Shown here piece by piece: positions 14,825 to 64,000 of a stretch of 64,000 nt of DNA. The stretch is taken from NCBI RefSeq assembly GCF_032444005.1, contig NC_091283.1, positions 401,884,001-401,948,000 of the forward strand, read 5' to 3'. The stretch comes from Ranitomeya imitator (taxonomy: Eukaryota). The notes below the pieces were generated by a model that ran no database searches, had not been told where the DNA came from, and saw only the letters and a program-made list of their open reading frames with translations. The position numbers and the translations under genes were made by a program. Every line of letters starts with the position of its first letter. The first letter of the stretch is position 1.

Positions 14825-16859
14825 TGCAGCGCCCCAGAGACCTGGTCGTTGCAGTAGTATCGCTCTGCCACTAAGGGGAGTGATGGTACGTCTGATGGCA
14901 CTAAAGGAGTTCATCTGACCAGGTATCACCAGCACACATTACACTTCACACTCCGGCCACTAGGGGGAGCAAAAGATTTTATTTATTAGGCCACTCCTCA
15001 CACTGGTAAAACTAGGGGTTGGATAGGAAGTTAGTCAGAAGCTGACTGGGTTTTGTTCAGGCAACATCCCGTGGCAGGGGGTGTTGCGGGGGGGGGGGGA
15101 AGATTCAGGGGGGTCCCTGTCAGGCGTGGGAACCTGGCAGGCACCTAGCGACAAGGATAGAACGTTACAGAGCTGCGCCTGCGCTATCTGCGGCGGCATC
15201 CAAAGAAAGGACATGAAGCGAAGGATATTGTGGACAGTGAGAAACCAGATAAAAGCACAAAGGAGAGCCAGTAGGAGTCATGCCCGGAGAACGGCAACAT
15301 CCTACTGAGGCGCGTAGCCGGTGCCCGAAACACCGAGGAAGTGACTGACTTTATGCCTTACTTCAAATACCGCAGGACAATTAATTATAGGTTGGCTGTC
15401 TACCTTACATCACCTAAGCAGACATAGGGGGCAAGCGTGGAGAGGGGCGTCTCTAGGGTCCCAGAATAGCTCCGAGCCTTCCCGTCAAACGGGTGTGTCC
15501 TATCCAGATAACATTGGGGGACAGAGAAAGAACGAGAATAGAAGTTGTGAGGACTATCCAGAATGCTCAGCAGGGAAGCACTACAACACACCTGCAAAGG
15601 GCACTCTGGATGTGTTTTCGGACCGGCCGGTCTCAGACAGCCCTGTTAACTGTGCTCTGGATTGCGGATCCTGAAGTCTTCAGTAAAGAGGTAAAGAGAC
15701 TGCAACCCTGTGTTCTCGTTATTGTCTGCACCTCACACCATCACCATCCACCTTACTGGGAAGCCCTGGGGACATACTTTCCTCAAGGATCCGTCCTTTC
15801 CTCAACCCCCAATCTACTAAAATGCTTGTGCACGTCCTCATCATTTCCCGCCTTGACTACTGCAACATCCTTTTCTGTGGCCTCCCTGCTAACACCCTTG
15901 CACCTCTCCAGTCCATCCTTAACTCTGCTGCCCGACTAATCCATCTCTCTCCTCGCTACTCCTCCGCTTCCCCCCTCTGCAAATCTCTTCACTGGCTCCC
16001 ATTCCCTCAGCGTATCCAGTTCAAATTGCTAATACTGACCTACAAAGCCATCCACAACCTGTCTCCTCCATATATCTCTGAACTAATCTCTCGATATCTT
16101 CCCTCACTTGATCTCCGGTCCTCCCAAGACCTCCTTCTCTCCTCCACACTTATTCGCTCCTCATCCAATCGCCTCCAAGACTTCTCCCGAACATCCCCCA
16201 TCCTCTGGAACTCTCTGCCCCAACACGTCCGACTATCAACCACAGTCGGATCCTTCAGACGGAACCTGAAAACTCATCTCTTCAGGAAAGTCTACAGCCT
16301 GCACTGACACCGCTGCTGCCTCATCACTATCGAAGCTACCGCCTCACCAACACCGGAGCTACCGCCTCACCAACACCGGAGCTACTGCTTCACCAACACC
16401 GGAGCTCCTGCATCCCTCAACCTACTGTCTCCTTCCCCATAATCCTGTATAATGTAAGCCCGCAAGGGCAGGGTCCTCGCCCCTCTGTATCAGTCCGTCA
16501 TTGTTAGTTTGTTTACTGTATGTGATATTTGTAACTTGTATGTAACCCCTTCTCATGTACAGCACCATGGAATCAATGGTGCTATATAAATAAATAATAA
16601 TAATAATAATAATACTTCACCTGTGGGAAGGTATACCATCTAGCTGACATCACATCACCCCAGTGGACCCCAAGCAGCGTCGGTCACCCTGACCGAACAC
16701 CACAGGTGGCGTCACAAACCCTTCACAGACTCGTATCACCTTTTATTGGACGCCCCTTAGCAGGGTCACGGACCGGGTCCAGCCACCGTGCAACCCCAGA
16801 ACTGAGCCGGAGAGGACCAGTACCGAGTAACCCACGGCCCTGCGTCTGGGGGCGCTCCA
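14825..16859 (+). repeat. Solo LTR (family copy A) containing an L2 insertion
   Basis: TGCAGCGCCCC...GGGGGCGCTCCA; 4-bp TSD GCCA at 14821..14824 and 16860..16863. Confidence 0.85.
15780..16612 (+). mobile_element. 5'-truncated L2 LINE
   Basis: ORF 15822..16307 (LIISRLDYCN..LHWLP..FRRNLKTHLF), 3' hairpin, (TAA)n tail. Confidence 0.9.
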
Positions 16860-28534: not shown

Positions 28535-29677
28535 TGGAGCGCCCCGTCAGGGCAAGGGGTTATTCGGTACCGGGTCCTGCGGTTCACAGGGGAATGTCAC
28601 GGTGGCTGACCCAGTCCGTGGCCCTGGAACATACATATAAAAGGGAAAGGTCTTTAAAGGGATAAGGTTTATGTTCGTGAGGCCACCTGTGGTATTCGGT
28701 CAGGGTGACCGACGCTGCTTTAAGGGGTCCGCTGGGGTGATGTTATGGTAGCTAGATGGTATACCTGCCCACAGGTGAAGTATATTCCCAGGGCTTTCCA
28801 GTATGTAGATGGTAGAATGGTGAGGGGTGCAATGAAGAACGAGGACACAGGATTGCAGTGTCTTTACCTTGTTTACTGTTGCTTTCAGCAGCCACAGTCC
28901 AAGGCACCAGATCACAGGGCAGGTAGAGTCCAGCTGCTTTGGAGGCAAGTCCAGAGTCCCCTTGTCCAGGTGGAAATCAATAGCCTTCCCTTGCGCTGTA
29001 GTGGTGTAGTCCCTTACTGCATAAGCTTCAAATAAGTTCCTCAAAGATGTGGTGTTTCTCTCTCTGTTCCCCATAGTCGGATAGGATAAAACCCCTATGA
29101 CTGCTGGCTTGAGGCGGTTTATAGGGACTCTAGCATGCCCCAGCTTCTGAGGGGTGCCACCATGCCTCCTAGGTGTAAGTGCGGGCAGGTAACATGCAAT
29201 TAGCTGTCCTGCCGGTCTCTGAAGTAAGGCGTAGAGGTCCTTACTACCTTGGTGTACCGGCTACCAGTTATCTGCGCCTCAGAAGGAGGCAGCCTGCTTG
29301 GGGCTGGTCCCCTTCTGGTATCCTCTCCTGTGCTTTGCTTTCCTGCATGCTCACTGCAACGTATTCTGCTTTCTGAAATGTCTCCTTCTGGGAGCTGTAG
29401 CTCTTAGGGCATGCACAGCTCCGTGGACCCTCTGTCCTCCTCAGACGAATGTCTGGAACTAACTAAATTTCCCTACAGACTACCAGTTATATACAGTATA
29501 TATGGGTAGTCACCTAGTAAATAGGATCAAAAGCTCCCCCTAGTGGCCTGGATTGTGAATATGTTGCATGCTTGTGGTACCTAGATGCAGTTATCCTTCA
29601 TTGCCTCCAAACGTAGCATCACTCTCCCTGAGAGGAAAGCAATGCCAATGTGATGACCAGAACCCTAGGGCGCCACA
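28535..29677 (-). repeat. Solo LTR (family copy B)
   Basis: TGGAGCGCCCC...GGGCGCCACA; 4-bp TSD TAGA at 28531..28534 and 29678..29681; reverse-complement homology to copy A. Confidence 0.85.
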
Positions 29678-31189: not shown

Positions 31190-33165
31190 AATTATAAACA
31201 AAAAAATATGGCCACAGAGTAATCCATACTGTATAATAGCCACACATGATGCTCAATACTGTATAATGGCCACACAGTGATCCCTACTGTATAATGACCA
31301 CACATGATGCTCAATACTGTATAATGGCCACACAGTGCTACATACTGTATAATAGCCACACAGTGCTCCATACTGTATAATGGCCACACATGATGCTCAA
31401 TACTATATAATGGCCACACAGTGCTCCATACTGTATAATGACCACACATGATGCTCAATATTGTATAATGGCCACACAGTGCTCCAAACTGTATAATGGC
31501 CACACATGATGCTCAATACTGTATAATGGCCACACAGTGCTCCATACTGTGTAATGGCCATACAGTGCTCCATACTGTATAATGGCCACACATGATGCTC
31601 AATACTATATAATGGCCACACAGTGCTCCATACTGTATAATGACCACACATGATGCTCAATATTGTATAATGGCCACACAGTGCTCCAAACTGTATAATG
31701 GCCACACATGATGCTCAATACTGTATAATGGCCACACAGTGCTCCATACTGTGTAATGGCCATACAGTGCTCCATACTGTATAATGGCCACACATGATGC
31801 TCAATACTGTATAAGGGCCATACAGTGCTCCATACTGTATAATGGCCACACATGATGCTCAATACCGTATAATGGCCACACAGTGCTCCATACTGTATAA
31901 TGGCCACACAGTGATTCATACTGTATAATGGCCATACAGTGCTCAATACTGTATAATGGCCACACAGTGCTCCATACTGTATAATAGCCACACATGATGC
32001 TCAATACTGTATAATGGCCACACAGTGCTCCATACTGTATAATGGCCACACAGTGCTCCCTGTTGTATAATGGCCCCACATGATGTTCAATACTGTATAA
32101 TGGCCACACAGTGCTCCATACTGTATAATGGCCCTATATGATGCTGCGTACAGTATAATGGCCCCACATGAAGCTCCATACTGTATAATGGCCACACATG
32201 ATGCTGAATACTGTATAATGGCCACAGTGCTCCATATTGCATAATGGCCACACATGATGCTCCGTACAGTATAATGGCCCCAAATGATGCTCAATACTGT
32301 ATAATGGCCACACAGTGCTCCATACTGTATAATGGCCCCACATGATGCTCAATACTGTATAATGGCCACACAGTGCTCCATACTGTATAATGGCCCCACA
32401 TGATGCTCCATACTGTTTAATGTCCACACATGATGCTCAATATTGTATAATGGCCACACAATGCTCCATACTGTATAATGGTCACACATGATGCTGCGTA
32501 CAGTCTAATGGCCCCACATGATGTTCAATACTGTATAATGGCCACACAGTGCTCCATACTGTATAATGGCCCTATATGATGCTGTGTACAGTATAATTGC
32601 CCCACATGAAGCTCCATACTGTATAATGGCCACACAGGATGCTGAATACTGTATAATGGCCACAGTGCTCCATATTGCATAATGGCCACACATGATGCTC
32701 CGTACAGTATAATGGCCCCAAATGATGCTCAATACTGTATAATGGCCACACAGTGCTCCATACTGTATAATGGCCCCACATGATGCTCAATACTGTATAA
32801 TGGCCACACAGTGCTCCACACTGTATAATGGCCCCACATGATGCTCCATACTGTTTAATGTCCCCACATGATGCTCAATATTGTATAATGGTAACACAAT
32901 GCTCCATACTGTATAATGGTCACACATGATGCTGCGTACAGTCTAATGGCCCCACATGATGTTCAATACTGTATAATGGATACACAGTACTCCATACTGT
33001 ATAATGGCCCCACATGATGCTGCGTACAGTATAATGGGCCCACATGATGCTGAATACTGTATAATCACCTCACATGATGCTTTGTACAGTATAATGGCCC
33101 CACATGATGCTGCGTATAGTATAATGGCCCCACATGATGCTGGGTACAGTATAATGGCCCCACCC
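31190..33165. repeat. Minisatellite with 28/30-bp variant units
   Basis: CTGTATAATGGCCACACAGTGCTCCATA alternating with CTGTATAATGGCCACACATGATGCTCAATA. Confidence 0.95.
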
Positions 33166-33524
33166 CATCATTGCCATCTCCCCAACCCCCTCATTGCCAT
33201 CTCCATCACCACACACACACACCTCTCACCGTGCTCCCTCGCAGCAGCCGGCAGCTTCCTCTCCTGCGGCTCTGAATGATGTCATCCAGCTACGCCTCCA
33301 GTGCCCAACTGATAAAGACCTCTCCGTGTCTCCTGTGCCAGTCAGCGTCAGAGCGAGGAGCAATGTCTGCTCCAATCTGACACAGCGATCGTGCAAGCAG
33401 TTTGAAGCGGCGGTACATTTGGTCTGAGGCCATGCCGGAAAAGGAGGATCCTGGCCGGGATAGCGGGACAGAGTCTCAAAATTGGGACTGTCGTGCTGGA
33501 TCCGGGACTGTTGGGAGTCATGCA

Positions 33525-34285
33525 CACGCGACTCTGCTCGGTACACACACACTGCTCCGCTCCGTACACCTCGTACACACGCAGATCCGCTCCATACACC
33601 TCGTACACACGCGGCTCCGCTCTGTACACCTCGTACACACGTGGCTCCACTCTGTACACCTCGTACACATGCGGCTACGCACGGTACACCTCGTACACAC
33701 CCAGCGCCGCTCGGTACACCTCGTACACACGCGGCTCCGTAGACCTCGTACACATGGGGCTCCGCTCCATACACTTCGTACAAATGCGGCTCCGCTCCGT
33801 ACACCTCATACACACGCGGCTCCGCTCCGTACACCTCATACACACGCGGCCCCAATCCGTACACATGCGACTCCGCTCTGTACACCTCGTACACACGCGA
33901 CTCCGCTCCGTACACCTCGTACACACGCGACTCCGCTCCGTACACCTCGTACACACGCGACTCCGCTCCATACACCTCGTACACACGCGACTCTGCTCCA
34001 TACACCTCGTACACACACAGCTCCGCTCCGTACACCTTGTACACACGGCTCCGATCCGTACACCTCGTACACATGCGGTTCCACTCCGTACACCTCATAC
34101 ACATGCGGCTCCGCTCCGTACACCTCATACACATGCGGCTCCGCTCCGTACACCTCATACACATGCAGCTGCGTTCTGTACACGTCGTACACATGTGGCT
34201 CCGATCTGTACACCTCGTACATGGCTCTGCTCCGTACACCTCGTACACACACAGCTCTGCTCCGTACACCTCATACACACGTAGA
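33525..34285. repeat. Minisatellite, about 29-bp unit
   Basis: CTCCGCTCCGTACACCTCGTACACACGCG repeated. Confidence 0.95.
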
Positions 34286-34791
34286 TAATCTACACGGCTC
34301 TTTTACATCCACACTGTAAACCTCTCCTGACCCCACACATAAACTTACCCTCATCCAGCACCATGACAACCAGCACAGCAGATGCCTGCATACACGGAGG
34401 CCCCTGATCATGTGACCCCTGACTTCTCCCCTCCTGTAACCTCATCACAGGTCCTGTGCGCACAGAGCAGCCATCCGGATGTTGTACAAAGAAAAGCTGC
34501 AGAGGAAGTTTCCCATTGTCTCTTAACAACCAGTCGGTGAATGAATAATGGATCACAGTGCAGTGCGGGAAAATTAAGATCCCGGCCGTGACAGCAGGGC
34601 AGACTCTCAAAATCGGGACTGCTCCGCTGGTTCCGGGATGGTTGGAAGGTCTGCTGCAGGGCCGCATCTTGGTCTACTTTCTGTAGACACTACAAGCTAG
34701 ATGTGATGTCAGGCAAGCAGTAAGCTTACCGATGGAAGGGCCTGCAGGCAATGGCCCCGCCCTAAAATGCCATTTATTTGGTATTTCTCCA

Positions 34792-53520: not shown

Positions 53521-53744
53521 TGAGTTTGATTTTCCAAAGTTCAACACCAAGTTAAAGGACAATGACCTCAAAAGCATCCAGACTTGAAAAAGACCTCAGA
53601 AAAATAATTCATTATTTGTTTTCCACTTTGACATCAGTTGAGAAACGTAAGATGGCACTGGTTGGTGAACCCTGTATATCGGCAGCAATATTATTTAGTA
53701 TTTATTTATGCACTTCCACCTCTGCAGTCAAGTATGGAAAATGA

Positions 53745-55102
53745 TAGTAGTTATGTTCTTGTACATAGTGGCAGTATTATAGTAGCTATATTTTTGTACA
53801 TAGGGGGCAGTATTATAGTAGTTATGTTCTTGTACATAGTGGCAGTATTATAGTAGTTATATTCTTGCACATAGGGGCAGTATTATAGTAGTTATATTTT
53901 TGTATATAGGAGCAGTATTATAGCAGTTATATTCGTGTATATAGGGGCAGTATTATAGTAGTTATATTCTTGTACATAGGGGCAGTATTATAGTAGTTAT
54001 ATTTTTGTACATAGGGACAGTATTATAGTAGTTAGATTCTTATACATATGTATTTTATACTTTGACAATGAAAATGTTGATTTTAAATGTTTATTTTTTA
54101 ACATACAAGTGTCCACATTATTTTGATTATATGAAAATAGCTACCAATGAAAGTCTTGGAGAAGACTATTTAACCTATGATTTTGCCCTAAATTTAGATA
54201 ATGACTAAGACCCAAGGTCGAAACGCGTTGATCGTTTCCAGGCTCTGAGCCAGTGTGTATACAGTGCTTGACACCGTATGTATAGATTATTTTAACTAAT
54301 GTTCATTAAAAATTAATTCTTACCTTCACCACTCACAGGACACAGCTGTTTTTTTTCGATTCATTACAGTTGCTTCGCCCTGGTCCGTGCAAGGTGTCGG
54401 TGAATAGGCAGGAGGTCAAGCCACAAGGAAATGGTGAGCTGACTCTTTTTTTTTATGATTTCAGTATTATAGGAGTTATATACTTGTACATAGAAGCAGC
54501 ATTATAGTAGTTATATTCTTGTATATAGGGGGCAGTATTATATTAGTTATATTCTTGTACACAGGGGCAGTATTACAGTATACTCTTGTACATGGGATCA
54601 GTATTATAGTAGTTATATTCTTGTACATGGGAGAAGTATTATAGTAGTTATATTCTTGTACATAGGGGCAGTATTATAGTAGTTATATTCTTGTATATAG
54701 GGGGCAGTATTATATTAGTTATATTCTTGTACACAGGGGCAGTATTACAGTATACTCTTGTACATGGGAGCAGTATTATAGTAGTTATATTCTGGTGCAT
54801 GGGGCAGTATTACAGTAGTTATATTCTTGTACATAAGGGGCAGTATTATAGTAGTTATATTCTTGTACATATAAGCAGTGTTATAGTAGTTATATTCTTG
54901 TACATACAGGGCAGTATTATAGTAGTTATATTCTTCTACATAGGGGTAGTATTATAGTAGGTATATTCTTGTACATAGGGGACAGTATTATAGTTGCTAT
55001 ATTCTTCTACATAGAGGCAGTATTATAGTAGTTATATTCTTGTACGTACAGGGCAGTATTATAGTAGTTATATTCTTGTACAGGGAAGTATTATAGTAGT
55101 TA
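53745..55102. repeat. Satellite with a 33-34-bp unit
   Basis: GGGGCAGTATTATAGTAGTTATATTCTTGTACATA repeated; interrupted at about 54045..54460. Confidence 0.95.
54197..54233 (+). ncRNA. Hammerhead motif with A3-U8 core inside a short Penelope-like insert
   Basis: GAT-A-ATGACTAA-GAC(CCAAG)GTC-GAAAC-GC-GTT-G-ATC; palindromic AACGCGTT stem III; stem I is weak. Confidence 0.6.
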
Positions 55103-55879
55103 TTATTATTATTTATATAGCACCATTGATTCCATGGTGCTGTACATGAGAGGGGGTTACATACAAATTACAGATATCACTTACAGTAAGCAAACTAACA
55201 ATTACAGACTGATACAGAGGGGCGAGGACCCTGCCCTTGCTGGCTTACATTCTACAGGATGGTGGGGAAGGAGATGTAGCGCCCCCAAGGGCTAGGGGGT
55301 ACTCGGTACCTGGTCCTTTGGTTCTCAATGGGGATGTCACGAGGGCTGACCCGGTCCGTGGCCCTCGGGAGGTTCGTTGTAAAAGGGGGAAAGGTCTTTA
55401 ACCCCTTAGTGACCGAGCCAATTTGGTACTTAATGACCGAGCCAATTTTTACAATTCTAACCACTGTCACATTATGAGGTTATAACTCTGGAACGCTTTA
55501 ACGGATCCCACTGATTCTGAGATTGTTTTTTCGCGACATATTGTACTTCATGTTAGTGGTAACATTTCTTCGATATTACTTGTGATTATTTATGAAAAAA
55601 AAACGGAAATATGGCAAAAAATTTTTACATTTTGCAATTTTCAAACTTTGTATTATTATGCCCTCAAATCAGAGAGATATGTCACAAAAAAATAGTTAAT
55701 AAATGACATTTCCCACATGTCTACTTTACATCAGCACAATTTTGGAACCAAATTTTTTTTTTTGTTAGGGAGTTATAAGGGTTAAAAGTTGACCAGCAAT
55801 TTCTCATTTTTACACCATTTTTTTTAGGGACCACATCACATTTGAAGTCATTTTGAGGGGTCTATATGATAGAAAATAA

Positions 55880-57420
55880 CCAAGTGTGACACCATTCTAA
55901 AAACTGCACACCTCAAGGTTCTCAAAACCACATTCAAGAAGTTTATTAACCCTTTACGTGCTTCACAGGAACTGAAACAATGTGGAAGGAAAAAATGAAC
56001 ATTTAACTTTTTTTTGCAAACATTTTACTTCAGAACCATTTTTTTTATTTTCACAAGTGTAAAAACAGAAATTAAACCATAAATTTTGTTGTACAATTTC
56101 TCCTGAATACGCAGATACCACATATGTGGGGGTAAACCACTGTTTCTGCGCACCGCAGAGCTTGGAAGTGAAGGAGCGCCGTTTGACTTTTTCAATGCAG
56201 GATTGGCTGGAATTGAGATCAGACGTCATGTCGCATTTGGAGAGCTCCTGATGTGCCTAAACAGTGGAAACCTCCCACAAGTGACCCCATTTTGGAAACT
56301 AGACCCCCATGGAACTTATCTAGATGTGTGGTGAGAACTTTGAATGCCCAAGTGCTTCACAGAAGTTTATAATGCAGAGTCGTGAAAATAAAAAATATAT
56401 TTGTTTTCCACAAAAAAAGATTTTTCAGCCCCCAAGTTTTTATTTTCACAAGGGTAACAAGAGAAATTGGACCCCAAATTTTCCAAGTTGTCCTGAGTAT
56501 GCTGGTACTCCATATGTGGGGGTAAACCACTGTTTGAGCGCACGGCAGAGCTCGGAAGGAAGGAGCGCCGTTTTGGAATGCAGACTTTGATAGAATGGTT
56601 TGTGGGCGTTTTCTTGCGTTTGCAGAGCCCCTGATGTACCTAAACAGTAGAAACCCCCCACAAGTGACCCAATTTTGGAAACTAGACCCCCATGGAACTT
56701 ATCTAGATGTGTGGTGAGAACTTTGAATGCCCAAGTGCTTCACAGAAGTTTATAATGCAGAGTCGTGAAAATAAAAAATATTTTTTTTCCACAAAAAAGA
56801 TATTGTAGCTTCCAAGTTTTTATTTTCACAAGGGTAACAGGAGAAATTGGACCGAAAAGTTGTTGTCCAATTTATCCTGAGTACGCTGATGCCCCATATG
56901 TGGGGGTAAACCACTGTTTGGGCGCATGGCAGAGCTCGGAAGGGAAGGAGCGCCGTTTTGGAATGCAAACTTTGATAGAATGGTCTGTGGGTGTTATGTT
57001 GCGTTTGCAGAGCCCCTGATGTACCTAAACAGTAGTAACCCCCCACAAGTGACCCCATTTTGGAAACTAGACCCCCCCAAGGAACTTATCTAGATGTGTG
57101 GTGAGAACTTTGAATGCCCAAGTGCTTCACAGAAGTTTATAATGCAGAGTCGTGAAAACAAAAAAATATTTTTTTTTCCACAAAAAAATTTTTGTAGCCC
57201 CCAAGTTTTTATTTTCACAAGGGTAACAGGAGAAATTGGACACCAAAAGTTGTTGTCCAATTTATCCCGAGTACGCTGATGCCCCATAGGTGGGGGTAAA
57301 CCACTGTTTGGGTGCATGGCAGAGCTCAGAAGGGAGTGAGCATCATTTGACTTTTTGAGCGCAAAATTGGCTGTCGTGTTTGGAGACCCCCTGATGTATC
57401 TAAACAGTGGAAACCCCCCA
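55880..57420. repeat. Tandem repeat of about 385 bp, about 4 copies
   Basis: GTGACCC.ATTTTGGAAACTAGACCCCC at 56281, 56664, 57049. Confidence 0.9.
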
Positions 57421-58428
57421 ATTCTAACTCCAACCCTAACCCCAACACACCCCTAACCCTAATCCCAACCCGATCCATAATCCTAATCACAACCCTAATG
57501 ATAATCACAACCCTAACCGCAAAACAACCCTAATGTCAACCCTAACCATAACCCTAATCAAAACCCCAAATCCAACACACCCCTAATCCTAATCTCAACC
57601 CTAACCTCAAACCTAACACTAATCCCAATACACCCCTACTCCCAACCCTAACCTTAACCCTAATCCCAAACCTAACCCTTATCCCAAGCGTAACCCTAAT
57701 GCCAACCCTAACCCTAATACCAACCCTAATCCAAACCCTAACCCTAATCCCAACTCTAACCCTAACTTTAGCCGCAAACCTAGCCCTAACTTTAGCCCCA
57801 ACCCTAACCCTAGGCCTAACTTTAGCCCCAACCCTAACCCTAGCCATAAGGCTACTTTCACACTTGTGTCGTGTGGCATCCGTCGCAATCCGTCGTTTTG
57901 GACAAAAAACGGATCCGGCAAATGTGCCCGCAGAATGCGTTTTTTGCCCATAGACTTGTATTGCCGACGGATCGCGATGGATGGCCACACGTCGCGTCCG
58001 TCGTGCACTGGATCAGTTGTGTTTTGGCGGACCGTCGGCACAAAAAAACGTTCAATGTAACGTTTTTTTGTACGTCGCGTCCGCCATTTCCGACCGCGCA
58101 TGTGTGGCCGTAACTCCGCTCCCTCCTCCCCAGGACATAGACTGGGCAGCGGATGCGTTGAAAAACTGCATCCGCTGCCCACGTTGTGCACAATTTTTAC
58201 AACGTGTGTGGGTACGTCGGGCCAACGCATTGCAACGGCCCCGTACCGACGCAAGTGTGAAAGAAGCCTAACCCTAAATTTAGCCCCATCCCTAACCCTA
58301 TATTTAGCTCCAATCCTAACCCTATATTTAGCCCCAACCCTAAATTTAGCCCCAACCCTAACCCTAACCCTAAATTTAGCCCCAACCCTAACCCTAAATT
58401 TAGCCCCAACCCTAAATTTAGCCCCAAC
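57421..58428 (+). repeat. Degenerate telomere-like (CCCTAA)n tract interrupted by a Harbinger MITE (57850..58268)
   Basis: AACCCTAACCCTAATCCC variants; the MITE is flanked by TAA. Confidence 0.85.
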
Positions 58429-60943
58429 TACTCCACCTGCTGGCCGGCAGAATATGGCGGGCGCACTGCTCATGCGCCCGCCATTTTCTTTCCGGATGAA
58501 GAAGCTGGCGGCCAGGAGAAGAAGCAGGAGGACCCAGGGACACCGGTAAGTATAGCAGGGTCCCCGAATCCCCCCTATTTCTCTGTCCTCTGATGTGCGA
58601 TCACATCAGAGGACAGAGAATGAAAGATCGCTTTTTTTTTTTTTTTTGCGATCGCCGGTAAACAGTTAATTACAGTTAATTACCGGTAAAAACCAACCCC
58701 GATCATGTTCTTCTACCCCCGGCAGCCGAGACCCCAAAGATTTTCCGGGTGCCGGCCGGCGGGCGCACTGCGCATGCGCCCGCCATTTTTGTAGCCAGAA
58801 CAAGATGGCGACCCCCATCGGGAGCCACGAGGAGCACCGGGGGAGACAGGTGAGTATCGAGGGGCTATTGGGGACCCCATTTCTCTGTCCTCTGATGTGC
58901 GATCACATCGGAGGACAGAGAAATTAAATGGGAAATTGCGTTTTGTTTTTTTGCGATCGCCGGTAAACGGTTAATTACCAGCGATCGCAACCCGGGGGTC
59001 GGTAAAAAAACCCCGAATCATGTTCTCTGGAATCTCGGCTACCCCTGGCAACCGAGACCCCAGAGAAAATCCAACTCTGGGGGGCGCTATTCACTTTTTC
59101 CAGAGCGCCGTTAATTAACGGCGCTGTGGTTTAAGTACCCTTAACTGCCGCCGATAAAAGGCGTATCGGCGGTCGTTAAGGGGTTAAAGGAATAATGTTC
59201 GTGATGCCACCTGTGGTATTTGGTCAGAGTGACCGACGCTGCTTAGGGGTCCGCTGGGGTGATGTTATGGCAGCTAGATGGTATACCTTCCCACAGGTGA
59301 AGTGTGTCCCCAGGGCTTCCCAGTGTGTAGATGGTGGATGGTGTAAGGCGCAGTGAAGAATGAGGACACAAGGTTGCAGTCTCTTTACCTTTACTGAAGG
59401 CTTCAGCATCCACAGTCCAGAGCACCAGATCACAGGGCAAGCAGAGTCCGGCCGGTCTGAAGGCAAATCCAGAGTCCCCTTATCCAGGTGGAAATCAATA
59501 ACCTTCCTCTAGCGCCTGGGTGTTGTAGTACTTTACTGCTGAGCTTCTCATAAGGTCCTCACAACTGTGTTAGATGTTCTAGATGTTGTGTCTCTCTCTG
59601 TCCCCCAGATGGATAGGACAAACCCGTATGACTGGTGGCCTGAGGCTTTTTACAGAAACGCGTCAAAAACGCATGAAAAAATGCGAAAAAAACCACATGT
59701 GGATTTCTGGCAGAAATGTCAGGTTTTTGTCAGGAAAATTTCTGCCAGAAAACCTGACGTGTGCACATAGCCTTACAGGTATACTATCTATTAAGTGCAA
59801 TGGCAAACATTTTATCTTTATTCAAGTGCAAACAATTATTCTTTCCTAAGTGCAAAGTTTTTAACTAACTAACTAACCCCCACGGGTTCACTTTATTGAA
59901 ATGCAGTCTACCAGCAGTCTATCAGCCGCCACGGGCTCACTGCATTTTTTTTCAATTTTATTCAAAGTACATTATATTAGTTTATCTAACTCTTAACTCT
60001 ATACTGTTAACTACATTCTATCGACTATGAAAAACACAATGCTATCTAACTACTCAATTCTTTCAAACATTATCACTTTAAGTAAAGTGCAACAAGTAAA
60101 CATTCCCTTCAAGGGCAAACTCAGTCTTTTCTGAGTGCAAAGTATCAATCACATCATCAATATTCAAGTCAATTGAGCACCAATGGTGATGTGATGCAAG
60201 GGACCCGTGACGAACCCCCAACGTTGGACTTGGGTGGGCTACAAGACCTGTATTCTGACCCGGAATTCTGCCACACCAACGGGTTTTTCTTCAGGTCCTA
60301 GAAAGCAAAGCAATTCTTTACAACAAGATTAACAGCAGTTTCTGTTAGAGGCAGTCTGTGTAAAAGCCTCCTTTGTAAAAGCAGTAGGAAGCACCCTTAA
60401 GAAGGTGCCAACTATTTACAATGGACAGTTTCTGATCATGCGCAGTTCATGATTCACAGTTCTTTAAGGCAACAATGAACTTTGTGCAAATTGAGGATCC
60501 CTTTAAGCATGGGACCTCTTTAAGAAATAACCCTGGACGGGTTTAAAGTAGAAAAAGGAAAGTTTAGTAACTATTTCCAGTCACATTCTTTCTTTTACTT
60601 TCCCTTATGCTTGGTGGGCCAGGGGCCACTGTCTCTCCATATCAGAGTCATGGTCCCAGGGAACCAGGCAATGGCCCAATCAGATCGGAGGGCTGATGGT
60701 GCTGAGAGCAGGCCTACCAGTGACTCATCGGCCTGCAGTGTGGCACAGTCAGGGGCCGTGGTAAGATCGCCCACGATGTCACGCCCTTCTTCTCCTGCGC
60801 TCTTCGTGGTGCTGTTATGACGGCAGTTTTGACAGGAATTTTGGCGGTCTTTTGCAATACACAGTCCTTTAGTAAATCACAGCTCAAGCACAATTCTGGC
60901 ACAGTTCTTAGGCGCACATGACCCGATTTTCAGGCTTAAGTAG

Positions 60944-60961
60944 ATACTGTTCGTGACGCCA
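60944..60961 (-). promoter_or_regulatory. Primer-binding site, tRNA-Ser(CGA)
   Basis: Minus strand TGGCGTCACGAACAGTAT; complementary to the 3' end of vertebrate tRNA-Ser(CGA), ATCCTGTTCGTGACGCCA (recalled from memory, needs a database check). Confidence 0.75.
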
Positions 60962-63091
60962 AAAGATTAGAGCACCCCCAAGGGCTAGGGGGTACTCGGT
61001 CCCGGTTCCTTCGGTTCTCAAGGAGGATGTCACGGTGGCTGACCCAGTCTGTGGCCCTCGGGAGGTCCGCTGTAAAAGGGGGAAAGGTTTTTAAAGGGAT
61101 AATGTTCGTGACGCCACCTGTGGTATTCGGTCAGATTGACCGACGCTGCTTAGGGGTCCGCTGGGGTGATGTTATGGCAGCTAGATTGTATACCTTCCCA
61201 CAGGTGAAGTATATCCCCAGGGCTTCCCAGAGTGTAGATGGTGGATGGTAAATGGTGTAAGGCACAGTGAAGAACGAGGACACAAGGTTGCAGTCTCTTT
61301 ACCTTTACTGAAGGTTTCAGCATCTACAGTCCAGAGCACCATATCACAGGGCAGGCCGGCCAGTCTGAAGGCAAATCCAGAGTCCCCTTATCCAGGTGGA
61401 AATCAGTAGCCTTCCTCTAGCGCCTGGGTGTTGTAGTACTTTACTGCTGAGCTTCTCATAAGGTCCTCACAACTGTGGTAGATGTTCTAGATGTTGTGTC
61501 TCTCTCTGTCCCCAGATGGATAGGACAAACCCGTATGACTGGTGGCATGAGGCTTTTTACAGGGACTCTAGCACGCCCCAGCCTCCACAAGTTGCCACCG
61601 TGCCTCCTGGGTATAGGGCGGGCAGGTAACGTGGAATTAGCTGTCCTGCCGATCTCTAGAGCAAGGCATAGAGACTGTTGCTCCCTCAGTGTATCGGCTA
61701 CCGAGGATCCTGCGCCTCAGAAGGAGGCAGCCTGTGTAGGGCAGAACTCCTTCTGGTTTCCTCTCCTTTTGCTATGACTTCGTTTCTCACCCTCTACAAT
61801 ACAGTTCGCTGTTCGTGTCTCTTTCTTAGGATGTTGCCGCACGTGGGGCAGGCGCAGCTCCGTGGCCTTCAGTCAAGACCTCTGACAGGATCCTACCCCT
61901 GTCAGGGACCCACTAACTGAGCGGAGCTCAGCTAGTAGCTCACTGGGTGAAGCCCAGCCAGCTTCTGCCTAACTTCCTTTCCAGACCACCAGTTTTACCT
62001 AATTGTGAAGAGTGCCCTAATAAATAGGAGCATAGCTCCCCCTGGTGGACTGGAGTGTGAATTGTGTTGCATGTTTGCGATACCTGGTAAAGAGATCTCC
62101 TTTATTGCCTTCAAATGTAACATCACTCCCCCCTAGAGGAGAATGATATTACTGCAACGACCAGGACCCTGGGGCGCTGCAGAGACAATAGGTTGAGGGT
62201 TGCAGGAGCTCCGGTGTTGGTGAGGCGGTAACTTCGGTAGTGGTGAGGAGGCAGCAGGCAATTTGTAGAAGGGGGAAGCGGAGGAGTAGCGAGGAGAGAG
62301 ATGAATTAGTCGGGCAGCAGAGTTAAGGATGGACTGGAGAGATGCAGTAAGACCACAGAAAAGGATGTTGCAGTAGTCGAGGCAGGAGATGATGAGGGCA
62401 TGTACAAGCATTTTAGTAGATTGAGGGTTGAAGAAAGGACGGATTCTGGAGATATTTTTGAGCTCGAGGCGACAGGAGGGGGAAAGAGCTTGGATGTGCG
62501 GTTTGAAGGGCAGAGTCAAGGGTTGCTCCGAGGCAGCAGACGTCCGGTACGGGGGAAAGCGTGATGTCATTTATTGTGATAGATAGGTCAGGTAAGAAGA
62601 TCTTTGAGATGTTGGAAAAATGATGGCCCAGATCGGCATGTGGAATGTGCAGAATGGGCAATACAAAAATTGGAACAGGACCCTCAGTTTACACAGAACA
62701 TTATGTTCAGTGATGAGGCAAACTTTTTTGAGTGGGCCATTTATAAGGATGCACCTAAATAACGTGGGAATGGTGACAGTTTTCTTGCGCAGGGTGTCTT
62801 GCATTGAAATCTGCTGCAATGACCAGGGTACTGCGTTCACCAGACATCAACACAATTTCTATCCCCTCCTCACGTGTTAACCTCTAAATCTCCGAACACA
62901 AATACTCGGAGACCACCCGAGCGTGCTCGTGAAATCTCGAGCAACGAGTATATTCGCTCATCACTAGTCACCACCCATCTTGAAAAGTTTTCCCCCTCCC
63001 ATATACTAATGTGCCACAAACAGGAAGTTGATATCACCAACCATTCTCATTTTATTTGAGTGGATGTACATGGCCCACCCTGTAGATATAT

Positions 63092-64000
63092 TCTTGTACA
63101 TATGGGCAGTATTATAGTAGTTATATTCTTGTACATGGAGCAGTATTATGGTAGTTATATTCTTGTATATAGGGGCAGTATTATAGTAGTTATATTCTTG
63201 TATATAGGGGCAGTATTATAGTAGTTATATTCTTGTACATAGGGAGCAGTATTATAGTAGTTATATTCTTGTACATAGGAGCAGTATAGTATTTATATTC
63301 TTGTATAGGGGACAGTATTATAGTAGTTATATTCTTGTACATAAGAGCAGTATTATAGTAGTTATATTCTTGTAAATAGGGGCAGTATTATAGTAGTTAT
63401 ATTCTTGTATAAGGGACAGTATTGTAGTAGTTATATTCTTGTATATAGGGGCCGTATTATAGTAGTTATATTCTTGTACATGGAGCAGTATTATAGTAGT
63501 TATATTCTTGTACATAGAAGCAGTATTATAGTAGTTATATTCTTGTACATAGGGGCAGTATTATAGTAGTTATATTTTTGTACATAGGAGCATTATTATA
63601 GTAGTTATATTCTTGTACATAGAGGCAGTATTATAGTAGTTATATTCTTGTACATAGGGGCAGTATTATAGTGATTATATCCTTATACATAGGGAGCAGT
63701 ATTATAATAGCTATATTCTTGTACATAGGAGCAGTATTATAGTAGTTATATTCTTGTACATAGGGGACAGTATTATAGTAGTTACAGTATATTCTTGTAC
63801 ATGGGGCAGTATTATAGTAGTTATATTCTTGTACATAGGAGCAGTATTATAGTAGTTATATTCTTGTACATAGGGGACAGTATTATAGTAGTTACAGTAT
63901 ATTCTTGTACATGGGGCAGTATTATAGTAGTTATATTCTTGTACATAGGAGCAGTATTATAGTAGTTATATTCTTGTACATAGGGGACAGTATTATAGTA
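63092..64000. repeat. Satellite with a 33-34-bp unit (same family as 53745..55102), runs off the window
   Basis: Same unit and same orientation. Confidence 0.95.

Follow-up and report, generated by a model that had tools for sequence, protein, structure and literature searches.

A U5 site complementary to the 5' end of its primer tRNA in a tRNA-Ser(CGA)-primed Ty3/gypsy family of Ranitomeya imitator: a candidate second point of primer contact

In a stretch of 64,000 nucleotides from Ranitomeya imitator (hereafter the window), copies of one long terminal repeat (LTR) carry, besides the primer binding site (PBS) that adjoins the LTR, two short segments complementary to the two ends of the same primer, tRNA-Ser(CGA), and placed about one tRNA length apart. 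What are these segments for, if anything? The preliminary description of the locus had offered multi-point primer capture, an internal switch, a target for tRNA fragments, or an antisense mimic of the acceptor stem. Here, the segment matching the tRNA 3' end is termed site 1 and the one matching the 5' end site 2. The features in the window are as follows.

60968 to 62181, minus strand: 5' LTR (copy D), 1214 bp, with a TCTC target duplication at its flanks
60944 to 60961, minus strand: PBS, 18 nt, complementary to the tRNA-Ser(CGA) 3' end including CCA, with a mismatch at 60946
60962 to 60967, minus strand: spacer between LTR end and PBS, 6 nt in copy D
61029 to 61039, minus strand: site 2 in U5, complement of tRNA nucleotides (nt) 1-11, about 65-70 nt upstream of the PBS
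61103 to 61116, minus strand: site 1 in U5, repeating the first 14 nt of the PBS; likely a relic
60968 to 61065, minus strand: long U5 stem-loop with site 2 in or near the loop (structure prediction only)
61304 to 61309, minus strand: poly(A)-signal-like hexamer (by eye)
61554 to 61559, minus strand: putative TATA-like box (by eye)
59181 to 59635, minus strand: copy C, upstream segment of the 3' LTR from the insertion that also contains copy D
55275 to 55401, minus strand: copy C, end of the 3' LTR, with TCTC directly after it
28535 to 29329, minus strand: copy B, LTR piece without PBS; site 2 at 28596-28606 and site 1 at 28672-28685
16612 to 16859, plus strand: copy A, terminal part of a subfamily b LTR, with site 1 at 16707-16719 and site 2 at 16782-16790

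Read on the minus strand, the LTR (62181 to 60968) is followed by the 6-nt spacer and the 18-nt PBS with its one mismatch. The motifs lie where they were first described and recur, with mismatches, in copies A, B, and C. The 11-mer of site 2 is exact at 61029 and 28596, and an exact 14-mer is shared by the PBS (60948) and site 1 (61103). Site 1 has one mismatch in each of copies A and B, and site 2 of copy A retains 9/11 matches. In copy C, site 1 (59196-59209) has one mismatch and site 2 (55336-55346) has two. By chance, such exact words would be expected with probabilities of about 5e-5 (an 11-mer within 200 nt of the PBS) and 5e-6 (a 14-mer inside the LTR). Copies C and D do not count as separate; sharing the TCTC duplication, they are the two LTRs of one insertion, and the upstream piece of copy C is 96% identical to copy D over 445 aligned bases. 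Both sites probably belong to U5, because both lie 3' of the poly(A)-signal-like hexamer, with the TATA-like box further upstream. The same hexamer is found in two other loci (L039 and L184). Copy C is interrupted between its two sites by a 3.8-kb insertion (55402-59180) that is bounded by TTAA, has inverted ends, and looks like a TTAA-targeting DNA transposon. Tandem minisatellite arrays occupy 31208-33163, 33517-34286, 53741-55118, and 63082-64000 of the window.

The element is a member of a Ty3/gypsy LTR retrotransposon family primed by tRNA-Ser(CGA). Paired TG...CA LTRs are flanked by short target duplications (TCTC for copies D and C; 4 bp at L184, L182, L183, and L168), a tRNA PBS follows the 5' LTR, and a polypurine tract precedes the 3' LTR. 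At one family locus (L036), two LTRs surround RVT_1, RT_RNaseH, and then rve (the last below its curated cut-off), which is the gypsy order; a protease motif there was identified by eye only. No open reading frame for reverse transcriptase (RT), RNase H, or integrase was found in the window copy, and several of 16 long loci are about 4.5 kb in length with two LTRs and no pol. The family is abundant, with 7374 first-look candidates and 13,582 exact matches in the genome to the context preceding site 1. Named relatives at the protein level belong to frogs, fish, an echinoderm, and molluscs. The LTRs of >1 kb and the length of 7.5-8.7 kb fit the Barthez clade as tabulated in PMC11117352, a comparison made by size only. 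A sister family has an RT-RH 77% identical to that of the window's family, and the two were grouped with 100/100 support in the tree. The LTR-PBS spacer is about 3-9 nt in the window's family (3-4 nt in 27/27 PBS-selected copies) and 4 nt in the family AGA-a (L168 and L173), longer and less uniform than the usual 2 nt. Despite these long spacers, the integrated LTRs end at CA with 4-bp duplications.

For the host tRNA, the genome contains one gene (82 nt) with the required 5' end, which ARAGORN identified as tRNA-Ser(CGA). This tRNA starts with the plus-strand reading of site 2 and ends with that of site 1, such that both of the tRNA ends given in the preliminary description agree with a real host gene. 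Exact 18-nt PBSs in the genome number 5862 for this isodecoder, 1222 for Ser(AGA), 197 for Ser(TGA), and 192 for Ser(GCT). On contig C4, the genes sampled from a large tandem array (1091 D-arm matches genome-wide) are of the type of the other Ser(CGA) isodecoder. No exact 18-nt PBS in the genome matches this array type, and all 5862 fit the isodecoder encoded by the single gene.

Conservation was scored in 50 loci retrieved by the PBS alone, which comprised 27 copies of the window's family, 21 of the sister family, and two with unrelated upstream DNA that were left out; the first 30 copies collected had been selected by likeness across the motifs and were set aside for this purpose. Among the 27 family copies, site 2 is exact in 19, has one mismatch in seven, and is missing in one. 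The modal-letter fraction is 0.96 in site 2, compared with 0.89 in the adjacent stem, 0.80 in the 3' flank, and 0.65 in the middle region between the sites. Site 2 is thus the best-kept block of U5, and the stem adjoining it is conserved nearly as well. Nucleotides 6-11 of the tRNA can be paired with site 2 in 26/26 copies, and the CpG of site 2 is retained in 20/26. In the sister family, the LTRs of which align with those of the window's family only in short patches, site 2 is present in 21/21 copies with one bulged extra base.

Site 1 is kept less well. In the same 27 copies, its 13-mer is exact in four, has one to three mismatches in 18, and is missing in five. The core of site 1 is conserved no better than its 5' flank (0.81 vs. 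0.78), and its second CpG is retained in only 9/22 copies, compared with 20/26 for the CpG of site 2 (p = 0.018). Site 1 is absent from the sister family, confined to the window's family, and eroding in sublineages of the latter. The kept core of site 1 (61109-61116), like the start of the PBS, can pair with itself across 8 nt, two of the pairs being G-U (-10.5 kcal/mol); as DNA, this segment presumably resembles CRE, E-box, and RUNX motifs.

Site 1 is directly preceded by an LTR-end-like CA and two further bases, and this context allows its possible use in priming to be traced. Both bases are changed in 36 loci; among the 30 examined, of which 16 keep site 1, none has an LTR that ends at the CA of site 1 with a target duplication (two of the 30 are ambiguous). 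Plain priming at site 1 was rejected accordingly, with no product among 30 of the 36 loci. Five LTRs of four elements (L342, L355, L356, L359, and L362), with both LTRs of one element among them, have in place of these two bases the three-base spacer found before the true PBS in 18/27 family copies. TT is found before site 1 in five more loci, and AT, TA, AA, or CA in six, for which about five double substitutions are expected by chance. One locus (L337) has lost about 130 nt and shows site 1 joined to a full PBS and leader. Sequence has thus moved from the PBS junction into site 1, though in only about 5-10 cases among 13,582 contexts. Such exchange may reflect occasional mis-pairing between the repeats by template switch or primer slip, with no function attached.

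The exchanges might instead be read as traces of a working second PBS, or of a decoy by which another tRNA is captured or the primer is passed on. The 13 nt of site 1 would bind the tRNA 3' end at -23.4 kcal/mol, and the second PBS of Drosophila Gypsy is described in PMC1635307 as binding the tRNA. Against such a role stand the few exact copies, the eroded CpG, the lack of distinction from the flank, the sister family without the site, the rarity of the exchanges, and the 30 loci without an LTR end at CA. The second PBS-like site, as first proposed, is very unlikely to work as a PBS on these grounds. Site 1 is likely a decaying duplicate of the LTR-PBS junction.

The tRNA-sized spacing raises the possibility that both sites are the ends of a whole antisense tRNA, copied when plus-strand synthesis read through the primer, and that they are now functionless. 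The order, strand, and length agree: CA and two bases are followed by the 3' complement and then by the 5' complement, with a span of 84-90 nt in 20/22 copies, compared with 85 nt for the tRNA with CCA. Read-through to the tRNA 5' end does occur with an unmodified tRNA, according to PMC13191261. The middle, on the other hand, has no residual tRNA likeness. ARAGORN called no tRNA gene, and alignment of the middle with the tRNA did no better than shuffles (z = -2.0 for the window copy; mean of -0.96 over 22 copies), which bears out the initial impression of a middle that is not tRNA-like. A tRNA gene or pseudogene at the locus was ruled out by the same results. Further sets gave mean z values of -0.8 (26 copies), +0.76 (21 sister copies), and -0.67 (16 copies of AGA-f, an AGA-primed family described below). 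Moreover, a functionless 11-mer would not stay intact while the middle was erased and the RT sequences diverged by 23%. As an account of both sites without function, read-through is quite unlikely, and it fails for site 2. As an origin it is possible: an old read-through copy of the primer could have left site 1 as its 3' end and would account for the tRNA-sized span, although the middle gives this no support.

Could 5' and 3' tRNA fragments restrain the element by way of these sites, or could the opposite strand act as an acceptor-stem mimic? Repression of LTR elements by 3' tRNA fragments via the PBS is reported in a preprint (bioRxiv 10.64898/2026.01.22.698655), and a 7-bp stem followed by a 3' tail of 4 nt can form on the plus strand. 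However, 181 of 200 shuffled sequences fold as well as the plus strand (z = +1.05) and the ends of the would-be mimic are unmarked; the antisense mimic was rejected. In addition, one would not expect an element to retain a silencing target that fits its own primer. Both versions appear very improbable.

If site 2 contacts the primer, families primed by other tRNAs might be expected to carry a 5'-end site matched to their own primer. One such family is AGA-f (17 copies), which has a 16-nt complement of tRNA-Ser(AGA) nt 1-16, mismatched at nt 11, about 41-26 nt before the PBS; 14/16 positions are paired in at least 15/17 copies. The AGA-f site binds its own tRNA at -24.2 kcal/mol and the CGA tRNA at -14.2 kcal/mol, and site 2 binds its own CGA tRNA at -21.5 kcal/mol and the AGA tRNA at -9.3 kcal/mol. 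The AGA-f copies were retrieved with a query containing the site, and conservation within the family is no higher in the site than in the flanks (0.90 vs. 0.87 and 0.92). Pol was not found in 14 long loci of AGA-f and the family AGA-h. A second AGA family, represented by one locus (L266), has an exact 10-mer counterpart. In a TGA-primed family, tRNA nt 4-13 are fully paired in 17/25 copies, with the pair at nt 5 scored as a wobble with the L061 gene because no TGA tRNA gene with C at that position was found; this site doubles as one arm of a local hairpin. L262, a metagenomic animal element in which the gag is related and the CGA PBS is the same, carries an exact 9-mer for the CGA tRNA, located at -175.

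The generality of these matches was assessed in 16 families, one copy each, by comparing tRNA nt 1-17 with the 200 nt of U5 before the PBS against dinucleotide shuffles. The families were drawn by eye and are partly dependent on each other. They include four judged by eye to be LTR-PBS junctions among 29 matches of a metagenome scan; L244, which is like L240, and L250, which is without signal, were left out. Six of the 16 reached p <= 0.05, with a combined p of 3.6e-5, or 2.8e-4 without the two discovery families. The controls gave combined p values of 0.55, 0.49, 0.036, and 0.032 for four other tRNA windows, 0.64 for the leader, and 0.057 for the next 200 nt upstream. The other ten families, which do not reach p = 0.05, show no 5'-end site; among them are the most common AGA family and a further four AGA families in which pol is present or nearby, so the site is not required clade-wide. 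The positions of the counterparts relative to the PBS also differ (about -16, -33, -41, -75, and -175), and the sites are therefore not one homologous element. No T-arm or anticodon matches stand out in the families scanned, and no counterpart of site 1 lies one tRNA length upstream in AGA-f, AGA-h, or L262. Two further observations come from metagenomic sequences. In L239, U5 contains a complement of tRNA nt 7-17, and the LTR end resembles the sequence before site 1. In L248, an element with the same primer, a stretch of U5 about 104 nt before the PBS resembles a second PBS, with wobble pairs (p = 0.01). Viral contigs yielded one match, without an LTR junction.

Folding of U5 suggests how site 2 could be presented. 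In subfamily b and the sister family, a long stem-loop is predicted for the last 110 nt of U5, and its loop takes in most of site 2; in subfamily a, to which the window copy belongs, the structure is weak or less clear. Site 2 is predicted to be partly open, with a mean unpaired fraction of 0.53-0.66 by group, and of 0.20 in the window copy with the PBS occupied. With the PBS occupied and loop closure not counted, the added site 2 helix is worth -3.8 to -12.7 kcal/mol in four family copies. The same calculation gives a gain of 6.7 kcal/mol in the sister family and 14.6 kcal/mol in AGA-f, and a loss (+1.6 kcal/mol) in the TGA family.

A different role for site 2 would be pairing within the RNA, in which it is kept to mask or present the PBS and follows the primer by way of the PBS. 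In the consensus fold of 20 copies, the core of site 2 pairs with the core of the PBS over 6 bp. This pairing is automatic because of the complementarity of the two acceptor-stem strands, and it would covary with the primer as well. It is nevertheless a weak helix, at -9.0 kcal/mol compared with -21.5 kcal/mol for site 2 with the tRNA, and at -12.0 compared with -24.2 kcal/mol in AGA-f, and no two-sided change was seen. It is also unable to account for the pairing of nt 8-11 in the window's family (26/26), nt 13-16 in AGA-f (16-17/17), and nt 8-13 in the TGA family. The tRNA 5'-end matches extend to nt 8-16, beyond the acceptor stem, and contacts at nt 8-16 cannot share a helix with the PBS. 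Intra-RNA pairing as the reason for keeping site 2 is thus unlikely. The pairing may simply be the state of the free RNA before contact with the tRNA, rather than an alternative to such contact. The internal switch suggested earlier is compatible with this: the cores of site 2 and the PBS can pair, only far more weakly than site 2 and the tRNA.

The most probable reading, held with moderate confidence, is that site 2 pairs with the 5' strand of the tRNA once the PBS has annealed, forming a two-point primer-template complex, with site 1 as a decaying duplicate. Annealing of the PBS would open the acceptor and T stems and free tRNA nt 1-7. These nucleotides, together with nt 8-11, would then anneal to site 2 in the loop of the U5 stem-loop. 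The resulting complex may steady or time initiation, and a match at two sites would favour the one isodecoder that fits both. Site 1 would rarely mis-pair with PBS-end nucleic acid during reverse transcription. Multi-point primer capture, as originally suggested, thus finds support in site 2, which is best kept and changes with the primer, and none in site 1. What the compared genomic sequences establish is the complementarity, its conservation, and the primer-matched counterparts in other families.

An antisense tRNA-like relic in an LTR is also reported for HIV-1, where a tRNA-Lys3-gene-like sequence in U3-R would aid minus-strand transfer from the RNA 3' end. The sites of the window's family differ in lying in U5 and in matching the tRNA at two ends only. 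The closest parallel is feline immunodeficiency virus (FIV), for which pairing of the extreme 5' nucleotides of tRNA-Lys3 with a U5 stem-loop has been proposed (Miller et al. 2001, as cited in PMC3230847). As in that account, the primer 5' nucleotides here are complementary to a U5 site upstream of a full 18-nt PBS, with 11/11 pairs in the window copy. Here, by contrast, the elements are Ty3/gypsy, the primers are serine tRNAs, 9-16 pairs are possible, and primer-matched natural variants exist, all of this known from sequence alone. Ty3 and Ty1 are also similar in that pairing between retrotransposon RNA and primer extends beyond the canonical PBS, including the D arm (PMC5371799). According to the same source, the Ty3 PBS is split, with one part at the 5' end and the other about 4800 nt away in U3, whereas the window's family has an undivided PBS and an extra site in U5 that targets nt 1-11. 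Drosophila Gypsy likewise has two tRNA-complementary sites, one of them dispensable for cDNA synthesis, but as described in PMC1635307 its second site lies at the 3' end of the genome and forms a bridge between the ends; the extra sites of the window's family are in U5, at the RNA 5' end only. A 5'-3' bipartite PBS of the Ty3 or Drosophila Gypsy kind was rejected, both sites being 3' of the poly(A)-like hexamer and hence in the putative U5. In HIV-1 (the PAS and A-rich loop), HIV-2, and RSV (U5 with the T arm), U5 contacts primer parts freed by PBS annealing; as reported in PMC3185550 and PMC5066621, those contacts target the T arm or the anticodon, and the tRNA 5' end in HIV-1 refolds within the tRNA. 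The literature searched, a scope outside which most subscription journals and repeat databases lay, contained no account of a site like site 2 in gypsy elements of vertebrates. Judged by its complementarity, site 2 is likely a variant of the known extended primer-template pairing that is new in vertebrate Ty3/gypsy elements.

A broader scenario is conceivable, if on balance doubtful. Vertebrate serine-primed gypsy elements may repeatedly gain a U5 complement of the primer 5' end (here by way of a whole read-through copy, the ends of which are still one tRNA length apart) and may load the primer by a double strand swap, in which the site 2-PBS stem and the acceptor stem exchange partners. If true, such a swap would explain why 5862 PBSs exist for the single-gene isodecoder and none for the array isodecoder, which differs in the acceptor stem.

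The extra primer-template contacts of HIV-1 are disputed, with evidence that is mostly mutational and from one virus, as discussed in PMC3185550. Families with different serine primers that carry a matching 5'-end site amount to a natural swap, and provide comparative evidence that the contact is selected. Taken together, these findings would extend an FIV-type contact to vertebrate Ty3/gypsy elements, and they offer a short, testable RNA pair for how retroelements may pick one tRNA isodecoder.
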